Assembly (NCBI GenBank): GCA_947588765.1
Contig: CANPZG010000003.1
Span: 2,032-66,031 of the forward strand
DNA: 64,000 bases
Direction of reading: 5' to 3'
DNA from: an uncultured Bacilli bacterium
GTDB taxonomy: Bacteria; Bacillota_I; Bacilli_A; RF39; UBA660
Shown: positions 4,000 to 32,068 of the stretch, in pieces
Position numbering within the stretch: the stretch's first letter is position 1
Layout of the letters: every line of letters starts with the position of its first letter
Notes under the pieces: model-generated
Told to the model about the DNA's origin: nothing
Databases searched by the model: none
The model's input: only the letters and a program-made list of their open reading frames with translations
Made by a program: the position numbers and the translations under genes

Positions 4000-5370
4000 T
4001 TATTGTATTTTTTCAACTATTTCTTTAAAGTTTAAGGCTTGGGATGCTTTAACTAATATTTTATCATCACTTTCTTTAATTTTATTAATTAATTTTATAG
4101 CATCTTCATTATTATTAAAATGATATGAATTTTCTTTTTTTATGCCATTACTTATAGCTCTTTCATTAATTAGTTCTGTATAATCACCAACCGTAACTAA
4201 AATATCAATATCTTCTTTAGCAATAACATCCCCTATTTTAGCATGTAAATCTTCGGAATATTCACCAAGTTCTAGCATGGTACCTAAACAAGCAATTTTT
4301 CTTCCCATTAGACTACCTAAATATTTAATACTATAACTTAAAGAATCAAAATTAGAATTATAGCAATCATCAATTACCGTAATACCATTATTTTCAATAA
4401 TATGCATTCTATTTCTGGATAATTCAAAATTATTTATGCCTTTTTCTATTTCTTGATGATTAAGATTTAATATTGTTCCCACACTTATAGCTGATAAGGC
4501 ATTATAAATAAAATGTTCTCCTCCAATAGGGACACGATATAATTCATCATTACAAATAAAAGTACTATAATTTTCTTCTTCCGTTATATTTGTCGCTTTA
4601 AAATCACTTTTTTTATTTATACTAAAAGTTTTAATATTATATTTATCTTTATTATTGTTATACCAATCACTTAGTAAATCATTATCAATATTAATAATTA
4701 AAGTTCCATCTTTATCTAATCCTTCTAAGATTTCTAATTTAGCTTTTAAGATATTTTTACGACTTCCTAAATTACCAATATGAGCTGTTCCAACATTAGT
4801 AATAACGGCAATATTAGGTTTAGCAATATTAGTCAAATAACTAATTTCTTTTAAATGGTTCATACCCATTTCTACAACTAATATATCTTTATCTTCTTCC
4901 ATAGATAGAATTGTTAAAGGTAGGCCAATATGATTATTTTGATTACCAATAGTTTTATGAGCATTATATTTTTCTTTTAAAACACTATAAATCATATCTT
5001 TCGTACTAGTCTTACCAGCACTACCTGTTATTGCTACAACTGGTTTTGTAAAAGTACTTCTTTTATATTTAGCTAGACTACCTAAAGCCATAACAGTATC
5101 TTTAACTAAGATAACACATTTATTATTACTTTTTAAATAATTTATTAATTCTGGAGTTTTTGCAATATTTGATACTATAACGATAGAGGCTCCCTTATTA
5201 AAGGCATCCATATAATGTAAATTTCCATCAAAGTTTTCACCTTTTATTCCGATATAAAGGTCATTATCATGAATCTTTCTAGTATCAATAGATATATTAT
5301 TAATAACAGTATCTATTTTATTTATTATTTCTAAGGCATCAATATTTTCAAATATATCTATGCTTCTCAT
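4000..5370 (-). CDS. murF: UDP-N-acetylmuramoyl-tripeptide--D-alanyl-D-alanine ligase
   Basis: Mur ligase motifs (ITGSAGKTSTKD, NVGTAHIG, DDCYNSN) and a typical length of 456 aa. Confidence 0.9.
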   Translation of the reverse strand: MRSIDIFENIDALEIINKIDTVINNISIDTRKIHDNDLYIGIKGENFDGNLHYMDAFNKGASIVIVSNIAKTPELINYLKSNNKCVILVKDTVMALGSLAKYKRSTFTKPVVAITGSAGKTSTKDMIYSVLKEKYNAHKTIGNQNNHIGLPLTILSMEEDKDILVVEMGMNHLKEISYLTNIAKPNIAVITNVGTAHIGNLGSRKNILKAKLEILEGLDKDGTLIINIDNDLLSDWYNNNKDKYNIKTFSINKKSDFKATNITEEENYSTFICNDELYRVPIGGEHFIYNALSAISVGTILNLNHQEIEKGINNFELSRNRMHIIENNGITVIDDCYNSNFDSLSYSIKYLGSLMGRKIACLGTMLELGEYSEDLHAKIGDVIAKEDIDILVTVGDYTELINERAISNGIKKENSYHFNNNEDAIKLINKIKESDDKILVKASQALNFKEIVEKIQ

Positions 5371-5402
5371 TTCATCACTCCCTTTAATATAGTAATTATA
5401 AC

Positions 5403-7667
5403 CTATTTAAAAACTTTTGTATATAATTCTTTAAATTCATTTATACATCTTATGTCTAGTTTTTCTTTTATAATGTTAGGTAAATCCTCTAACTCTTTTT
5501 TATTAGCTCTAGGTATATATACTATATTTACATCATTATTATATGCAGTAATTAGTTTTTCCTTTAATCCGCCTATGGCAAGTATTTCGCCATTTAAAGT
5601 TATTTCACCAGTAAAAGCCATATTTTTAGGCACTTTTTTCTTTTTAACAATACTGGTTAAAGCTACTAGTATAGCGAGTCCCCCACTTGGGCCATCCTTC
5701 TTTGTCGCCGCATCTAAAAAGTGAATATAAACATCCTTTTTATCTAAAGTAATTTTATAATTAGTTTTAATGTAACTTAAAGCAACATAAATACTTTCCT
5801 TTAAGATATCACCTACGGAACCAGTGAAATAATATTTACCAGTTCCTTCAACTATTTTGGCTTCAACTTTCGAACAAAAACCGCCATAAGAATTTACTCC
5901 TAGAATATTAGCTTCCCCTATTTTACCAGTAGCTAAAGGAATATTTTCCTCCATCGGATTACCCAAAAGAATAGGCAAATCTTTACTAGTTAATTTTTTT
6001 CTACTCGCAATAACCATCTTTCTTACTACTTTTTCTAGTTTTCGTTCTAATTCCCGAACTCCAGCTTCTTTCGTATAATTATTAATGATTGTCTTTATAA
6101 GTTCATCACTTATAGTTATTTCATAATTATATTCTTTATAAATTTTAGGTAATAAATAATATTTAGCAATATCTTTTTTATCAAATATCGTATAACTATT
6201 TAAATTAATTACTTCCACTCTATCTAATAAAACTTCCGGAATATCATTGATATTATTAGCCGTCAAAATAAATAAAATATCACTTAAATCAAATGGTTCT
6301 TCAATATAGTTATCGCGAAACATTTTATTTTGGATTGGATCAATTATTTCGAGTAGGGTACTCGCCGGATCCCCATGATAATTTTTCGTCATTTTATCGA
6401 CTTCATCAATTAGCATAACGAGATTTTTACTTCCACAGCTTTTTAAACCTTGAATTATTTTACCGGGATTAGCTCCAAGATAAGTACGACGCGAACCAAT
6501 TAATTCAGTGGAATCATTCAAACCTCCTACGGAAATCTTATAAAATTTACGATTTAAAACTTCCGCAATAGCCATGGCAATAGATGTTTTACCAACTCCT
6601 GGTGGTCCAATTAAGCAAATAATTGGCGTTTTAATATTATTATTTTTAGCTTTGACGGCGATATATTCACTAATTCTTTCTTTAATTTCGGTTAAACCAT
6701 AATGGGTTTGATTTAATTTTTCAATTATTTCATCTGGATTGATTGGATCTTTCGTTTTATTATTCCATGGTAAATTAATTAACCAATCAATATAAGTTCT
6801 AATAACTCCCATTTCAGGACTTGATTCGTTAATTAAAGAAAACTTTTCAATTTCATTTTCTAACTTTTTTTGAATACTACTAGTTAATTTTAAAGTATTA
6901 AGTTTATTAATAAACTCTTCCGTTTCTTGTTCTTGAGTAGATCTTTCTCCAAGTTCTTCTTTGATAACTTTTATCTTTTCTTTTAAAATAAATTCTTTTT
7001 GATTAGCCTCTATTACTTCACTAACTCTTTCATCTAACTCATCTTCTAGTTTAATAATCGCTATTTCTTCTTTTAAATCATTAAGTAAATTTTTGGCTCG
7101 ATTTAAAGGATTATAGTTTTGCATATATTCACATTTTTTTTCATAATTAAAATTTAGGAATGATGCTATAATATCTGTGATATGGTCTAAAGATTTTGCT
7201 TTAGTAACTGTTGTCAAAATACTATTAGATATATTATTGGAGGAATCAATATATTCTTTTAAAGTAGCAATTAATTTGCGAGTTAAAGCTTTTTCTTCTT
7301 CCGGGGCAAACTTTGGTAATTCTATTTTTTGATATTCTGCATTTAAAACATCTTCATTCCAGTTAGATACAAAATATTTAGTTACAACGACACGAACTAA
7401 TCCTCTTAAAGTTAAGCGAACATTACCACTGGGAAGTTGAATTTTACTTTTGATTTTGGCGATAATTCCGACATTAGGTAAATCATCAACACTCGGTTCT
7501 TCTTCCTTTTTATCAAGAGGTGCCACTACTAAAACTTTACTATCATATTCAAGGGTACTTTTCTTGATAATTAATTTACTTATTTTATTATTTAACTCTA
7601 TTTTTATCTCTTGATTGGGGAGGATAATTAACTCTTTTAAAAGGATAACTGGGATTGTGTTTTTCAA
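5403..7667 (-). CDS. lon: ATP-dependent Lon protease
   Basis: LON N-domain, Walker A GPPGVGKTS, Walker B MLIDEVDK, and the protease motif KDGPSGG. It uses a TTG start after GGAGGTGA. Confidence 0.95.
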   Translation of the reverse strand: MKNTIPVILLKELIILPNQEIKIELNNKISKLIIKKSTLEYDSKVLVVAPLDKKEEEPSVDDLPNVGIIAKIKSKIQLPSGNVRLTLRGLVRVVVTKYFVSNWNEDVLNAEYQKIELPKFAPEEEKALTRKLIATLKEYIDSSNNISNSILTTVTKAKSLDHITDIIASFLNFNYEKKCEYMQNYNPLNRAKNLLNDLKEEIAIIKLEDELDERVSEVIEANQKEFILKEKIKVIKEELGERSTQEQETEEFINKLNTLKLTSSIQKKLENEIEKFSLINESSPEMGVIRTYIDWLINLPWNNKTKDPINPDEIIEKLNQTHYGLTEIKERISEYIAVKAKNNNIKTPIICLIGPPGVGKTSIAMAIAEVLNRKFYKISVGGLNDSTELIGSRRTYLGANPGKIIQGLKSCGSKNLVMLIDEVDKMTKNYHGDPASTLLEIIDPIQNKMFRDNYIEEPFDLSDILFILTANNINDIPEVLLDRVEVINLNSYTIFDKKDIAKYYLLPKIYKEYNYEITISDELIKTIINNYTKEAGVRELERKLEKVVRKMVIASRKKLTSKDLPILLGNPMEENIPLATGKIGEANILGVNSYGGFCSKVEAKIVEGTGKYYFTGSVGDILKESIYVALSYIKTNYKITLDKKDVYIHFLDAATKKDGPSGGLAILVALTSIVKKKKVPKNMAFTGEITLNGEILAIGGLKEKLITAYNNDVNIVYIPRANKKELEDLPNIIKEKLDIRCINEFKELYTKVFK

Positions 7668-25621: not shown

Positions 25622-26290
25622 TTATTTCCATCTTGTTAAATACATATATTCTTCAATATGCATTTGATGATAATTATCATCATATTCCATCATCTCATTA
25701 TATAACTCCATGAATGGTCCATTGAATGGACGATACCGGCATCCATCATTACAAAAACGAATGGTAACATCGGGAATAAAATCTTTTAAAGATTCTTCTT
25801 TTTTTACTTTTACTTTAAATTGCAGCAACATACCATCAACTATTGGTTTAATTATAACCCAACTCGGAGGAAACTCATTATCCCATCCTTCATCTTTAAT
25901 ACAATCTTCACTATACCAAATTATTTTATCATCAAAAACTAATTTACTTCTTTCGAAGAAAAATAATCTTTTTTCTTCCTCAATTACTTTTTTATAATCT
26001 GCTATGTTACGCCAACAACGATTTTCTAATTCAAAATTCGTTATTTTAGATTTATAAAAAAATATTTTATTATATAAATCTCTAAATTTTTCATATAAAT
26101 CATAATCTTCTTTGGTAATTACAAAATCATAATAAACATAAGGAAATTCAATTTTAGAATGTTTACCTGTTATATGCCAATATAAATCACCATTTCCCCC
26201 ATAAGTCATGTATAAACTATTATCTTTATTTTTATATTCAATATCTTGACATTTAAAATGAGGATTATTTATTTTTCTAATTTCAATCAT
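25622..26290 (-). CDS. hypothetical cytoplasmic protein (222 aa)
   Basis: Clean ORF with no recognised family. It lies in an insertion between rpmA and obg. Confidence 0.7.
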   Translation of the reverse strand: MIEIRKINNPHFKCQDIEYKNKDNSLYMTYGGNGDLYWHITGKHSKIEFPYVYYDFVITKEDYDLYEKFRDLYNKIFFYKSKITNFELENRCWRNIADYKKVIEEEKRLFFFERSKLVFDDKIIWYSEDCIKDEGWDNEFPPSWVIIKPIVDGMLLQFKVKVKKEESLKDFIPDVTIRFCNDGCRYRPFNGPFMELYNEMMEYDDNYHQMHIEEYMYLTRWK

Positions 26291-26468: not shown

Positions 26469-28091
26469 TTATATTTTTCTAACTTTGTTCATTATTTCTT
26501 CTTTAGGATGAACAATATTTTCTAATGACTCTAAAATATATTCTCTAACATCATTATTATCATAATCTTTATCCATAGTATAAGTTTTGAAATATTTTTG
26601 ACAATATTTAAAAAACTCTTTAAGTTTAGAACTTTCCAAACTAGAAATCAAAACTTTTCGATATTCTTGATAATCAAATTTTATATAACCTTCATCTGAA
26701 TATTTCCATACACTATCACTAGTTCCACTTTCAAATCCACACGAATGACTTCTACCTCTTGTTGTTAGATGTAGTTTAGTTTTACATTTACTATCTAATA
26801 TAAATTTTTTAATTTCTAAAAAAGATAATAAAATATTTCTTGCATCTTCTCTTTGACAAATTTGCTCTAAAGCATTAATTTGTTCTTTAAAGAAGGTTTG
26901 AAATTTTAAAATATAGTAAAAATAGCCGTCATAAAAATTTTCCCGTAATAAATCACCAATAGAATTTTTTTCTGTATCGTAATAGAGTGTTTTAATGGTA
27001 TCATTTTGAAAATTATAAGTACTACCATCAATAGTATAATGATGTTTTCTATTGTAATCACCTTTTAGTAACATATTATATAAATTATAAGAAAAATAGC
27101 GATCATCAAATAACTCACTTTTAAAAGCTCCATAATAACTATCTTTATTAAGCAAATCATCATAAAATGCTTCATTAAGATAAGGAAAATATAAATTCAT
27201 TGGTTTTATAAATTCTAAAATCATTTTTTTATTTTTAGCATCACAATTATTCATTAATTCTATATATCTATTAAATGTCTTCATATCTAATTTATATAAA
27301 CACAATGTTAAAATTTCGTCTCTAGTTATATTAGAATATTTTTTTAATAATTCATCAACATCAATATTTAATAAAATAGAATTTTGAAAAAGAACAATTA
27401 ATTCATGAAAAGGATAAGTTGAAAAATTATATTTAGAATAATTAGCATAGTAAAGTTCATACATTCTATTTATGTCTGGACTATATTTTTGGATAAATTT
27501 AGGACTTAAGATTCTAGTATAAACAGTTTCTTTATCATCTTGTATAACTTTTTTATAACCTAATTCATTTACCCATGCTTTTTTTAAAGTATTAAAACCA
27601 CTGCCTTCTTTTAAGTTAGTTTCTGTAACTTCTTTATCTAGGCCAAATTTGCCTAAAACATCCCAAATATTTATAACAGAAAAAAGCAAAGTTAAAATAT
27701 CAATATTAAAACGGTCTAAAACATCGTTAGTGGTAATCATATTTTCAAGACGATGCAAACCATTAGAATCTTTTCCAAAAATAAATGCAATTCCCCACCT
27801 ATAAAATTCATGAATACTTTCATCTAGACTTTTCAATAAATGTATATAAATTTCCCTTCTAGATTTATTGTATTCTTTAACTTCTTCATAAAACTTTTGG
27901 CCTTCAATAGTAATTGGATTTTTTATATACGATTTTTCTTCTTTTATACTTCTATCATCTGTTATAAGAAAAGCAAAGTAATACAAAAATGTATCTAAAG
28001 CTTTTTTGATTTCTTCATCATTTTTATCTTTTGAAAAGATTCCTAACTTAAATTTTTCACTTATTTCCTCTAAACTATGAGTCATAACCAA
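26469..28091 (-). CDS. hypothetical cytoplasmic protein (540 aa)
   Basis: Long ORF rich in Tyr, Phe, Lys and Asn. No motif was recognised. Confidence 0.7.
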   Translation of the reverse strand: MVMTHSLEEISEKFKLGIFSKDKNDEEIKKALDTFLYYFAFLITDDRSIKEEKSYIKNPITIEGQKFYEEVKEYNKSRREIYIHLLKSLDESIHEFYRWGIAFIFGKDSNGLHRLENMITTNDVLDRFNIDILTLLFSVINIWDVLGKFGLDKEVTETNLKEGSGFNTLKKAWVNELGYKKVIQDDKETVYTRILSPKFIQKYSPDINRMYELYYANYSKYNFSTYPFHELIVLFQNSILLNIDVDELLKKYSNITRDEILTLCLYKLDMKTFNRYIELMNNCDAKNKKMILEFIKPMNLYFPYLNEAFYDDLLNKDSYYGAFKSELFDDRYFSYNLYNMLLKGDYNRKHHYTIDGSTYNFQNDTIKTLYYDTEKNSIGDLLRENFYDGYFYYILKFQTFFKEQINALEQICQREDARNILLSFLEIKKFILDSKCKTKLHLTTRGRSHSCGFESGTSDSVWKYSDEGYIKFDYQEYRKVLISSLESSKLKEFFKYCQKYFKTYTMDKDYDNNDVREYILESLENIVHPKEEIMNKVRKI

Positions 28092-29280: not shown

Positions 29281-29308
29281 TAAAAAAGATTGAAAATTTC
29301 AATCCCTT
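29281..29308 (-). terminator. intrinsic terminator ending the 3 x 38-nt repeat RNA
   Basis: Minus strand: GGGAUUGAAAUUUUCAAUC followed by UUUUUUAUUUU. Confidence 0.65.
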
Positions 29309-29310
29309 TT

Positions 29311-29426
29311 AAACCTATTTTTAACTGGAATAGTAAAACCGCTTTATACACCCATTTTTTAACTAGTTTGGTAAAACTTCTTTATAAATCCATTTATTTA
29401 CTGGTTTGGTAAAACCGCTTTTAAAC
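29311..29426 (-). ncRNA. small RNA made of 3 tandem 38-nt direct repeats (ToxI-like architecture, no adjacent recognisable toxin)
   Basis: The landmarks TTAACTGG (29321), TTAACTAG (29359) and TTTACTGG (29397) give a 38-nt period. The array lies between its own promoter and terminator. The hairpin GGTTT-GGTA-AAACC (29403-29416) is kept as AGTTT-GGTA-AAACT (29365-29378) by a compensatory change. Confidence 0.55.
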
Positions 29427-29432
29427 AACTTA

Positions 29433-29461
29433 ATTTTATATAAATTTATATCCTCTGTCAA
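29433..29461 (-). promoter_or_regulatory. promoter TTGACA-17-TAAAAT for the repeat RNA
   Basis: Minus strand: TTGACA at 29461-29456 and TAAAAT at 29438-29433. The -35 lies 11 nt downstream of the stop of the 29473-30381 gene. Confidence 0.6.
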
Positions 29462-29472
29462 GCAAAATATAA

Positions 29473-30381
29473 TTATTTTTTTAAAGTTAAAGTTAGCCCT
29501 TCTTTAGAATCTAAAAATTTCTTTATATTATCCATATTATTTTGAAATATTACTTTACTCTGCTCTCCAGTTAAAAAATGTGTTAATCCAAAATAATCTA
29601 AATCATTTAACTCGGGCATACAAACTGCTACTAAACGTGAAAATAAACCATTTGTTAAGTAATCCAATTCGAGAAAATGAACATCATAACCAACATCAAT
29701 GCCTTTGATATAAAGCCACATATCATGAAATATATTTTTAGTAGTAACATCGTGATTTCTAATAGAATAATCTTTGCCATTTTTGTATTCCTTAACTAAA
29801 ATAGTTTGCATTTTTTTATTTTCTATGGTAACAGTAGCTTTAGTTTGACAATTCTCATTTATATTTTCTGTTAAATGGTCAAATTCTATTTTTTCATCAT
29901 CTTGGCTTAAAGTATAATAATCTCTAATGTGTTTATACTTAGTTCTATCAATTCTTTCTAAAATAAGTTTATTTTGATTTGGTATAATTAACTCTATTTT
30001 TTTTTGACTATCACTTATTACTTGCAATTTGGCACTAGCATAACATAATCCTTTAAGAGGATAACAAATTGTAAATACTAAATTATATTCATAATTACCT
30101 TTCAAAAATTTATAATTATCTTTAAAAAGATGACAATTTATAACATCATCTTCTCCATGATTATTTAATTTATAATTAGCATTAAATTTAAAGCCATCGT
30201 ATTCGCCATTAAAATTAATATAGTTAGAAGTAATATAAGCATAACCTACTTCTTTTTCATCTTTATAAATCTTACCAATATTTATCCATTTGTTGCATTC
30301 TTTATTAACATCTAATTTTAAACCTAAAGTATTTAAAAATATTATACCCGGTCTTATTCTTTCTTCATAATTTACATTCAT
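29473..30381 (-). CDS. hypothetical protein (302 aa), paralog of the 30384-31271 gene
   Basis: Shares the N-terminal motif IIFLNTLGLKLD (versus ITFLNSLGLTLD), a similar length and an overall similar layout. No known domain was recognised. Confidence 0.75.
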   Translation of the reverse strand: MNVNYEERIRPGIIFLNTLGLKLDVNKECNKWINIGKIYKDEKEVGYAYITSNYINFNGEYDGFKFNANYKLNNHGEDDVINCHLFKDNYKFLKGNYEYNLVFTICYPLKGLCYASAKLQVISDSQKKIELIIPNQNKLILERIDRTKYKHIRDYYTLSQDDEKIEFDHLTENINENCQTKATVTIENKKMQTILVKEYKNGKDYSIRNHDVTTKNIFHDMWLYIKGIDVGYDVHFLELDYLTNGLFSRLVAVCMPELNDLDYFGLTHFLTGEQSKVIFQNNMDNIKKFLDSKEGLTLTLKK

Positions 30382-30383
30382 AA

Positions 30384-31271
30384 TTAATTTTTCCTTTCTC
30401 TAATCAAAGTTTTAATTTCATCTTGACAAATAATATCTTCCATTGAGAACCCAAATAAAGTTTCTAAATCATTTTTTTCATAATCTGGTAACGCTAAAGA
30501 TAAAATTTTAGGTAACCAGCCGCTCATTCCCAATTCAATATTTTTTAATATATCGTAATATCTAGGATTAAACTTAATCATTATATCTACTACTTGGTTT
30601 ATTATATTTTCTTCTTCCTCTTCTTCTTTATAAATGACTTTATCGAAAGCGCTACTAGCAATTGTTACTTCTTGCGTACCTCTTCTATCTATAAGTAATG
30701 TTCCATCATATTTTGTATAGTAATCATCTACTACTATTTGTTCTTTTATTTCTTGCATTCCTTTAAAATAATAAGAATAAGTTAAATACGGATTATTCCT
30801 TATATTTAAAGGAGCTATAAGTAATTTTTCCTTTTCCCCATTATTATTAACTTTTTCATAACTAAAATCTTTATCCTTACCTACTACTAAATGCCAACTA
30901 TCACCAATTAAATTATCAAATTTAGCATCTAATACAATATGATCTTCAGCAAACGTAAATGTTCCTTTTAAAATACTTTCACCTAATTTAAGCATGCGAT
31001 AACTTAGACTTTCAAAATTATCTTTACCATAGGTAGCCTTAATTTCTAAACCATTATCTTTAGCAAATACTTGAATATAATCTTTATCATCAATGGCTAA
31101 ATTACCGGCAATAAAGCCATACTTATTATAGATTTTTATCATATCTAAATTATTTAATAAATTTCTTTTTTTATTATCTAAACTATCTAAGGTTAACCCT
31201 AAGCTATTTAAAAAAGTTATTGCTAGTGTTAATTTTTCTTCTAAAGTTTTTGTTTCCATATTTGTTTCCAT
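30384..31271 (-). CDS. hypothetical protein (295 aa), paralog of the 29473-30381 gene
   Basis: See its partner. The two genes are tandem with a 2-nt gap, and this one has an acidic EEEEEE stretch. Confidence 0.75.
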   Translation of the reverse strand: METNMETKTLEEKLTLAITFLNSLGLTLDSLDNKKRNLLNNLDMIKIYNKYGFIAGNLAIDDKDYIQVFAKDNGLEIKATYGKDNFESLSYRMLKLGESILKGTFTFAEDHIVLDAKFDNLIGDSWHLVVGKDKDFSYEKVNNNGEKEKLLIAPLNIRNNPYLTYSYYFKGMQEIKEQIVVDDYYTKYDGTLLIDRRGTQEVTIASSAFDKVIYKEEEEEENIINQVVDIMIKFNPRYYDILKNIELGMSGWLPKILSLALPDYEKNDLETLFGFSMEDIICQDEIKTLIRERKN

Positions 31272-31294: not shown

Positions 31295-32068
31295 TTATAG
31301 TTTATTGCTTATATCTTTGTCAAATCTTTCTTGTAATTTTTGTTTTTCACTGATGGCCTTTTTTCCTTCAATAAAATATTGATACGTATCTTTTTTTAAA
31401 ATATCAATAGTTCCTTTATTACTTTTAATATTTTTAAAAGCATAATTTTTTAAATATCGTTCCAATAAAAATCGATTATAAATATATTTATAATTTTTAA
31501 TATAATCAATTGTTTTAATAATTAATAAACTGCATATTAAATAATTATTTAGTGATTTACTAATATCTATTATTAAAAATAAAATTATGCCTATACAAGA
31601 AATAACAATCTGCCAAATGTAAGAAATTTTAAACGAAAAAAATTTATTAATTAAAGCATTAACAATAATACTTCCATCCAAAGGAATAATGGGTAACATA
31701 TTAAAAAATATTATCGCGGTATTATATTTAAAAATTAATTCTTTAGTTATATCCCTAAAAATAGGTATAAATAAAAGAAGATATAAAACTAATTGAAAAA
31801 ATATGCCCCCGAAAGCAATAATTAATTCCCTATTAATAGGAGTATTAAGATCTTTATTAATTATTGTTACTCCTCCGAAAGGATAAATGGTTATTTTTTC
31901 TATTTTGTAACCTAAAATAAATGAGAAAAAAACATGCCCTAATTCATGAATTAAGACAATACTAAAAATAATTAAAGCCGATTTTATTAAGCCACAAAAA
32001 AAGAAAAGTAGTAAAAAGTAAATGGTGAAAGCATTAATTTTGATAATCTTCATATTTAATAAATTCAT
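31295..32068 (-). CDS. M50 site-2 metalloprotease (SpoIVFB-like)
   Basis: Polytopic protein with HELGHVF (HExxH) and NMLPIIPLDGS (NxxPxxxLDG). Confidence 0.8.
   Translation of the reverse strand: MNLLNMKIIKINAFTIYFLLLFFFCGLIKSALIIFSIVLIHELGHVFFSFILGYKIEKITIYPFGGVTIINKDLNTPINRELIIAFGGIFFQLVLYLLLFIPIFRDITKELIFKYNTAIIFFNMLPIIPLDGSIIVNALINKFFSFKISYIWQIVISCIGIILFLIIDISKSLNNYLICSLLIIKTIDYIKNYKYIYNRFLLERYLKNYAFKNIKSNKGTIDILKKDTYQYFIEGKKAISEKQKLQERFDKDISNKL

Follow-up and report, generated by a model that had tools for sequence, protein, structure and literature searches.

Layout of the array

The stretch of DNA analysed here (the window; 64,000 nt, GC content 26.6%) is part of contig CANPZG010000003.1 of assembly GCA_947588765.1, from an uncultured Bacilli bacterium (RF39; UBA660). 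It carries, in this order, mreC, mreD, a gene for an M23 peptidase, one for a spoIVFB-like M50 peptidase, two paralogous genes of no known family (paralogs A and B), a short RNA array of tandem repeats with a promoter and a terminator of its own, rplU-prp-rpmA, two open reading frames (ORFs) and obg. We describe the array, which very probably is a type III antitoxin of the ToxI family standing without an adjacent toxin gene. The array, its promoter and terminator and the rplU features all lie on the minus strand, and coordinates are collected in Table 1, where the three repeat units are numbered u1 to u3.

The RNA promoter (TTGACA-17-TAAAAT, 29461-29433) matches the consensus at 11 of 12 positions and begins 11 nt past the stop codon of the ORF at 29473-30381, where a preliminary description of this DNA had placed it. 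The units start eight bases past the -10 hexamer; judged by promoter spacing, transcription would begin at about 29426-29430. The three head-to-tail 38-nt repeats read off in the same description are recovered by Tandem Repeats Finder at 29306-29426 (period 38, 3.3 copies, 77% matches), and both period and copy number fall within the range of the toxIN family, in which repeats of ∼31-62 nt occur in 1.9-5.6 copies (Table 2 of PMC3401426), with means of 38.1 nt and 2.8 repeats (PMC3401426). Exact copies of the core GTTTTACCAAAC are confined, within the 64 kb, to u1 and u2. The junction motif WAAAG, a putative cleavage site, is present at 4/4 unit boundaries, as it is in arrays linked to toxN. 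The terminator (29308-29281) folds at -11.4 kcal/mol (z=-4.8; 0/200 shuffles as good) with U6 next to it, and was missed by a simple terminator scan because its stem has just two G-C pairs. In two relatives the stem differs in sequence (L007, z=-2.7; L016, z=-3.9), yet it pairs in both. The separate rplU promoter of the preliminary description is present as well, with its -35 hexamer 80 nt from the end of the array terminator.

A search with all 4227 families of Rfam (release 15) gave nothing in 29281-29461, either at the gathering thresholds or even at E<=10, and only L21_leader nearby. Two other candidates for the region were rejected. In the case of a preQ1-I-like riboswitch (hairpin and A-rich tail) the loop is too short, Rfam PreQ1 is unmatched and homology to ToxI accounts for the sequence; the mini-ORFs at the unit junctions (ATG-GNN-NTA-TAA) have no Shine–Dalgarno sequence and are absent from u3.

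Homology to ToxI arrays linked to toxN

A degenerate pattern covering both types of unit, GGTTTTACYAWWCCRGTWAAWAAWWRG, was scanned against metagenome contigs and matched three of them, all with near-identical arrays. Each opens with a TTGACA/TATAAT promoter and a small 5′ hairpin, goes on with three units of 37-38 nt and closes with a terminator hairpin, behind which come a Shine–Dalgarno sequence and a gene. In contig L093 the product of this gene matches Pfam ToxN_toxin (PF13958) over its full length with E=1.5e-47, and a profile built on this toxin together with its homologs finds ToxN_Bt (4ATO, 4.9e-22), ToxN_Pa (2XD0), E. coli ToxN (7D8O) and AbiQ (4GLK) among the solved structures. The L093 ToxN has 379 homolog clusters, and among five further homolog loci (L095-L109) every one examined has the same order of promoter, 5′ hairpin, two or three units, terminator and toxN. 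The canonical unit of these arrays is AAAG-N-GGUUUUA-C[CU]AUU-CC-AGU[AU]AAA-AAU[GA]G-GCAUAU. The 27-nt core of u3, GGUUUUACUAUUCCAGUUAAAAAUAGG, recurs unchanged in the middle unit of three arrays linked to toxN (L093, L095 and L107) and is invariant in all four array-bearing lineages; hence the third unit, which had been taken as degenerate, is the one that agrees with genuine toxIN units. The toxN-linked arrays also end like that of the window, with UAAAAG and then a hairpin, but their U-tract is weak.

A covariance model, R1, was built from 22 distinct units, all from toxN-linked arrays, and the whole window was searched with filters off. It matched u3 over its full length with 60.9 bits (E=1.9e-11) and u1 with 34.6 bits (E=1.1e-5), and gave u2, which was searched alone so that its E-value is not comparable, 21.0 bits. 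Because a model made from toxN-linked units alone matches the units of the window, we assign the array to the ToxI family. The likeness to ToxI proposed in the preliminary description is thus borne out by near-identical units directly 5′ of ToxN_toxin genes, and the new class of repeat RNA that it had offered as another choice is set aside by the same homology. The best other match of R1 in the window (31449-31481, plus strand, 19.8 bits, E=0.02) falls within the M50 gene, antisense to it, and has no GGUUUU segment; it is probably due to chance.

The toxIN loci with this type of unit are found in low-GC gut bacteria (22-30% GC), and some of them adjoin recombinases. One such contig shares a gene (67% amino acid identity) with a Bacilli metagenome-assembled genome (MAG) from the same set of rplU loci, and some come from contigs of the same series of rabbit-gut studies. 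When IMG/VR viral contigs were scanned for DNA patterns of the units, four scans gave zero matches, and so did blastn searches of GenBank phages and PLSDB plasmids with the array as query. Another ToxI subfamily was seen on an IMG/VR contig (L121, 2700-2990), where a ToxN with only 31% identity to the reference is preceded by three repeats of ∼37 nt (GUGGACCCUACU..GUGGGAGUUUUAAAAG); the L121 array and the subfamily of the window have the UAAAAG junction motif in common.

Table 1. Positions of the array, its signals and the features around it in the 64,000-nt window
Feature	Coordinates	Strand	Remarks
-35 TTGACA of RNA promoter	29456..29461	-	kept in L005, L007-L011 and L016; deleted in L014
-10 TAAAAT of RNA promoter	29433..29438	-	17-nt spacer from -35
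Unit 1 (u1)	29387..29424	-	derived ToxI-like unit, UUAAAAGCGGUUUUACCAAACCAGUAAAUAAAUGGAUU
Unit 2 (u2)	29349..29386	-	most diverged unit, UAUAAAGAAGUUUUACCAAACUAGUUAAAAAAUGGGUG
Unit 3 (u3)	29311..29348	-	canonical ToxI unit, UAUAAAGCGGUUUUACUAUUCCAGUUAAAAAUAGGUUU
Junction motif UAAAAG and intrinsic terminator	29281..29310	-	GGGAUUGAAAUUUUCAAUC and U6
rplU promoter, TTGACA-17-TAAACT	29201-29173	-	separate from RNA promoter
L21 leader, RF00559	29155-29085	-	Rfam match
Paralog A	30384..31271	-	295 aa; co-inherited island gene
Paralog B	29473..30381	-	302 aa; co-inherited island gene; putative functional link to RNA
ORF between rpmA and obg	26469-28091	-	540 aa; no known family
ORF between rpmA and obg	25622-26290	-	222 aa; no known family

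Structure of the repeat units

Across the toxN-linked units the 5-bp helix S2 (C[CU]AUU/AAU[GA]G) is paired in 100% of cells, and 3/5 of its pairs change on both sides, which 0/500 shuffles equalled. Moreover, more distant arrays before ToxN genes on IMG/VR contigs (toxin 47% identical to the reference) keep S2 with other sequences, GAGCGU/AUGCUC and GAUUGU/ACAAUC, fully compensated; these distant units fell out of register in MAFFT, and their pairs were therefore counted by hand in a script. In u3, GG (29340-29339) can pair with CC (29328-29327) in a second, candidate helix S1, and CUAUU (29333-29329) with AAUAG (29319-29315) in S2, so that it has all seven S1 and S2 pairs. S1, in which GG meets CC just past the 5′ arm of S2, would form an H-type pseudoknot with it, although S1 never varies in toxN-linked units and for that reason the pseudoknot is only predicted. 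PMC5772629 reports the H-type pseudoknot as the fold class of ToxI.

Units u1 and u2 retain S1 but only 3/5 pairs of S2. Changes of UU to AA together with a 1-nt insertion break two S2 pairs and at the same time create the hairpin GGUUU/AAACC, an extension of S1 (in u1, 29416-29412 with 29407-29403), and in u2 the pair AG...CU in place of GG...CC is a compensatory change in S1. The preliminary description had noted this hairpin, with its change of G-C to A-U, in two units. Both are present in u1 and u2, while the helix that is conserved and covaries in the family is C[CU]AUU/AAU[GA]G; the GGUUU/AAACC hairpin is a lineage-specific extension, not seen in toxN-linked units. Thus, u3 is the canonical unit, and u1 and u2 are derived ones. 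The second of these is a lineage-specific duplicate of the first: the arrays of L014 and L016 have two units and no u2, and in L007-L011 u2 is identical to u1.

In L007 (3390-3410), in L016 (5673-5696) and in toxN-linked loci (for example L095, 2830-2860), the start of transcription is separated from the first unit by a short hairpin. It was seen in every toxN-linked array of the subfamily examined and in relatives of the window, but is deleted in the window itself, and it may be a 5′ stabiliser or a guide for processing.

The upstream paralogs and the absence of toxN

Downstream of the array terminator comes rplU, which has a separate promoter and an L21 leader, and not a PF13958 toxin gene. 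With the L093 ToxN as query, tblastn had no match either in the window or across L001-L091, the related loci, and the best match of a ToxN profile hidden Markov model among all six-frame ORFs of the window had E = 0.6, which agrees with the earlier remark that no ToxN-like gene follows the array. Because toxN was searched for in the window and was not found there, the array is regarded as the antitoxin half only and not as a complete toxIN locus.

The two genes upstream of the array are paralogs by blastp (30% identity over 105 aa, E=9e-5), with shared motifs at the N-terminus (..FLNSLGL.LD) and the C-terminus (LAYPEY..EI..LFG), and paralog A has a promoter of its own at 31323-31294 (TTGACA-18-TATAAT, 12/12). 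They gave no family in Pfam, PADLOC or PHROGs and no match in a profile search of the PDB, and their hhalign probability against the ToxN profile was 0.14%. An AlphaFold2 model of paralog B was poor (pLDDT, the predicted local distance difference test score, 52.5), and with this low-confidence model Foldseek found nothing below E=0.04. Homologs number 7 among 5.8 billion clusters and 15 among 1.8 billion representatives; wherever their context was seen, they stand as two or three tandem copies between a spoIVFB-like M50 gene and rplU. These proteins evolve very fast: types share ∼16-20% identity in the family alignment, and in tblastn the window paralogs matched L014 over short stretches alone (27% over 66 aa) and L016 not at all.

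Distribution and conservation

The insertion made up of the paralogs and the RNA is patchy among the relatives. In L012, the closest by L21 (98%), and in L017 the M50 gene is followed straight by the rplU promoter, with neither paralogs nor RNA; L067 has two paralogs and no RNA, and both L014 and L016 carry a pair of paralogs with an RNA of two units. The whole RNA, run with nhmmer against 80 related rplU loci, matched only L014 and L016. Over 876 kb of related loci, R1 gave strong matches (E<=2e-4) solely in lineages already known as array-bearing, besides two isolated weak ones at chance level (L081 and L064, E ∼0.04).

The close relatives L001-L011, with rplU 98-99% identical, are too similar to inform on selection, and we therefore compared the window with L016. 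Between the two, u3 is identical at 40/40 positions and u1 at 35/38, as against 87.7% for rplU, 83% for prp, 72.5% for the M50 gene and 58% for the terminator and spacer beside the units. The substitutions in the units are located at positions that are variable in genuine toxN-linked arrays too. As the units are more alike across lineages than rplU and the adjacent spacer, the comparison of sequences argues for purifying selection on them. In L014 (∼5170-5176, compared with L016 5627-5715) an 89-nt deletion takes out the promoter and the 5′ hairpin, so that the first unit comes directly after the stop codon of the paralog; this may mean expression by read-through, inactivation or an artefact of MAG assembly.

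Neighbouring genes and related loci

The nearest genomes to the window are MAGs of uncultured gut Bacilli/‘Tenericutes’, many from rabbit (‘Lapin’) samples. The L21 leader of the window barely reaches the Rfam gathering score (36.1 versus 36.0 bits), and its sequence is nearly invariant across related MAGs. The interval between rpmA and obg, which is where spo0B sits in Bacillus, holds the two ORFs of Table 1; L014 encodes the 222-aa protein twice in tandem (61% and 35% identity), further homologs of it occur in L012, L015 and L016, and the 540-aa protein gave zero tblastn matches in related loci. Contig L005, 96-97% identical to the window, carries a DDE transposase (PF13751/PF01609; 402-2021, minus strand) between a recD2-like gene and the mreC region, which is absent from the corresponding place in L003. 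In L015, whose L21 is 95% identical, an unrelated gene (5380-5790) stands 5′ of the rplU promoter in place of the M50 gene and paralogs. The site 5′ of rplU looks like a variable hot spot. The right-hand boundary of the island could not be defined by alignment, the DNA 5′ of the rplU -35 hexamer having diverged in all relatives.

Interpretation and alternative explanations

We have little doubt that the array is a ToxI-family antitoxin without an adjacent toxin. As an explanation of why it is there, we favour, with some reserve, an orphan ToxI antitoxin that acts in trans and gives immunity against a ToxN encoded elsewhere or arriving on mobile elements. From the near-consensus sigma-70 promoter a transcript of ∼145 nt would be made, with three 38-nt units, WAAAG junctions and a strong intrinsic terminator. 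By analogy with solved ToxIN complexes, a cognate ToxN would cut this precursor at the A-rich junctions, and each unit would fold as a small pseudoknot that blocks the ToxN active site. ToxN and AbiQ are reported to prefer A-rich sites for cleavage (PMC5086642), and the WAAAG junctions fit this. At this locus toxN would have gone and the leaky terminator between the two genes would have been replaced by a strong one. Because no toxN adjoins, the RNA could act only in trans, as a standing antidote against a cognate ToxN, whether encoded at another place in the genome or brought in by a plasmid, prophage or other mobile element. Such a role in immunity or anti-addiction is plausible, since cognate toxIN loci occur in similar low-GC gut bacteria. 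That the array works as a trans-acting antitoxin today, with the putative transcription, processing, ToxN binding and role that this would require, we hold to be possible, though on balance slightly doubtful.

Several points weigh against an active antitoxin. Use of the promoter and processing and stability of the RNA are predictions from the DNA; the search for toxN viewed 64 kb of the genome, and a toxN may lie elsewhere in it. The derived units u1 and u2 are without two of the five S2 pairs and may bind ToxN poorly, and a phage pseudo-ToxI lost its antitoxicity through changes of single bases where it meets ToxN (PMC3475682). The argument from selection compares two deep lineages (window/L005/L007 and L014/L016), all of them metagenome assemblies. 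Moreover, because L067 has the paralogs without an array and L012 has neither, the RNA is dispensable; L014 has lost the promoter.

The main rival, which we consider unlikely, is that the array is a recent, non-functional relic of a toxIN locus at the island edge, drifting to loss since toxN was deleted; a deletion of toxN does no harm while the antitoxin stays. It would agree with the lack of the array in L012, L017 and L067, with the deleted promoter in L014, with the weakened family helix of u1 and u2 and with the deletion in the window of the 5′ hairpin that relatives and toxN-linked arrays have. A drifting relic, however, should not hold u3 and u1 closer to L016 than rplU is and far closer than the adjacent spacer; the terminator stem has diverged yet kept its pairing, the promoter is retained in three of four lineages, and in the window lineage a unit was duplicated, not lost. 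The preliminary description had suggested a type III-like system of inverted gene order, in which the RNA and the two upstream paralogs would be a new RNA-protein pair with a partner other than ToxN. Indeed, the four lineages in which the array was found all have it directly after the paralog pair and nowhere else; the L014 copy, which comes right behind the stop codon with no promoter, would be co-transcribed; and u1 and u2 carry a conserved fold (GGUUU/AAACC) that toxN-linked units do not have. But the paralogs are without similarity to ToxN, match nothing in the family and structure databases, and are both present in L067 without an array; the proteins are very divergent while the RNA is near-identical, unlike a specific co-evolving pair, and the co-location may go back to a single ancestral insertion. 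We consider this pairing improbable. Equally improbable in our judgement is the related case in which an array of ToxI descent, without its toxN, was domesticated so that the remodelled and conserved u1 and u2 bind the upstream paralog pair or some other protein that is not ToxN; if true, this would mean that a type III antitoxin has given rise to a new RNA-protein system.

Two further explanations leave ToxN aside, and we give very little weight to either. As a cis element the array would be an insulator or terminator that keeps transcripts running out of the island from entering rplU-prp-rpmA, or would serve this operon as an additional leader, and its place just upstream of the rplU -35 hexamer and a hairpin with U6 flanked by an A-tract, which could terminate both ways, are in keeping with this. 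The rplU promoter and L21 leader are conserved, however, in L012, L017 and L067, which have no array, and a lone terminator needs neither three conserved ToxI units nor a promoter of its own. A regulatory small RNA base-pairing with mRNAs would have the same stand-alone architecture from promoter to terminator, but against the translation-initiation regions of the 52 window genes the best RNAduplex energy was -23.3 kcal/mol, and shuffled RNAs did better (mean best -28.3); ToxI homology, moreover, already explains the sequence. The orphan trans-acting antitoxin thus stays the explanation that we favour.

Relation to known systems

With type III toxIN loci the window array shares three tandem 38-nt units, a promoter of its own, A-rich junctions and, behind the last unit, a hairpin terminator, and its unit sequences are homologous to arrays before PF13958 toxins, the core of u3 being identical. 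A promoter 5′ of the repeats and a Rho-independent terminator after them are reported for ToxI-type arrays (PMC5086642). The locus differs from them in that rplU and not toxN follows, in its strong U6 terminator as against the weak tract of toxN-linked loci, in the loss from u1 and u2 of two pairs of the family helix with the gain of a 5-bp GGUUU/AAACC helix, and in having no Rfam match. The nearest functional analogue is the pseudo-ToxI of the Pectobacterium phage PhiTE, a toxin-less ToxI-like array that neutralises ToxN in trans and whose copy number changes by repeat expansion (PMC3475682). The occurrence of two or three units among our lineages recalls this expansion. PhiTE pseudo-ToxI, however, is phage-encoded and serves escape from abortive infection, whereas the window array is chromosomal, between spoIVFB-like and rplU genes.

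Orphan type II antitoxins are kept without their toxin in bacterial chromosomes, as in the chromosomal ccd of Erwinia chrysanthemi, and have been proposed as anti-addiction modules that protect against post-segregational killing by elements with the cognate toxin. Such a module is the nearest conceptual analogue of the array, although orphan type II antitoxins are proteins and the array would give a repeat RNA of putative processing and function. CsrB and RsmZ are multi-site small RNAs that titrate a protein, and the array would act in a similar manner; they have no sequence or structural relation to it, and the partner of the window RNA would be an endoribonuclease that also processes it.

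In full-text literature searches we found no orphan type III antitoxins in bacterial chromosomes, and the phage pseudo-ToxI was the only toxin-less ToxI mimic in the searchable literature. Surveys of type III systems start from homologs of ToxN, CptN and TenpN and then look upstream for repeats (PMC3401426, PMC5086642). Because they start from the toxin, toxin-less antitoxin arrays are invisible to them.

The units define a ToxI subfamily, GGUUUUAC-CYAUU-CCAGUNAAA-AAURG, that is not in Rfam, and the window array together with the ToxN of L093 or L107 makes a directly testable pair. A chromosomal array that has its own promoter and terminator and is more conserved than the adjacent genes for ribosomal proteins suggests that an RNA antitoxin can survive on its own. 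Such lone RNA antitoxins might be immunity or anti-addiction elements against toxIN-bearing mobile elements, which are abundant in gut bacteria of this kind.

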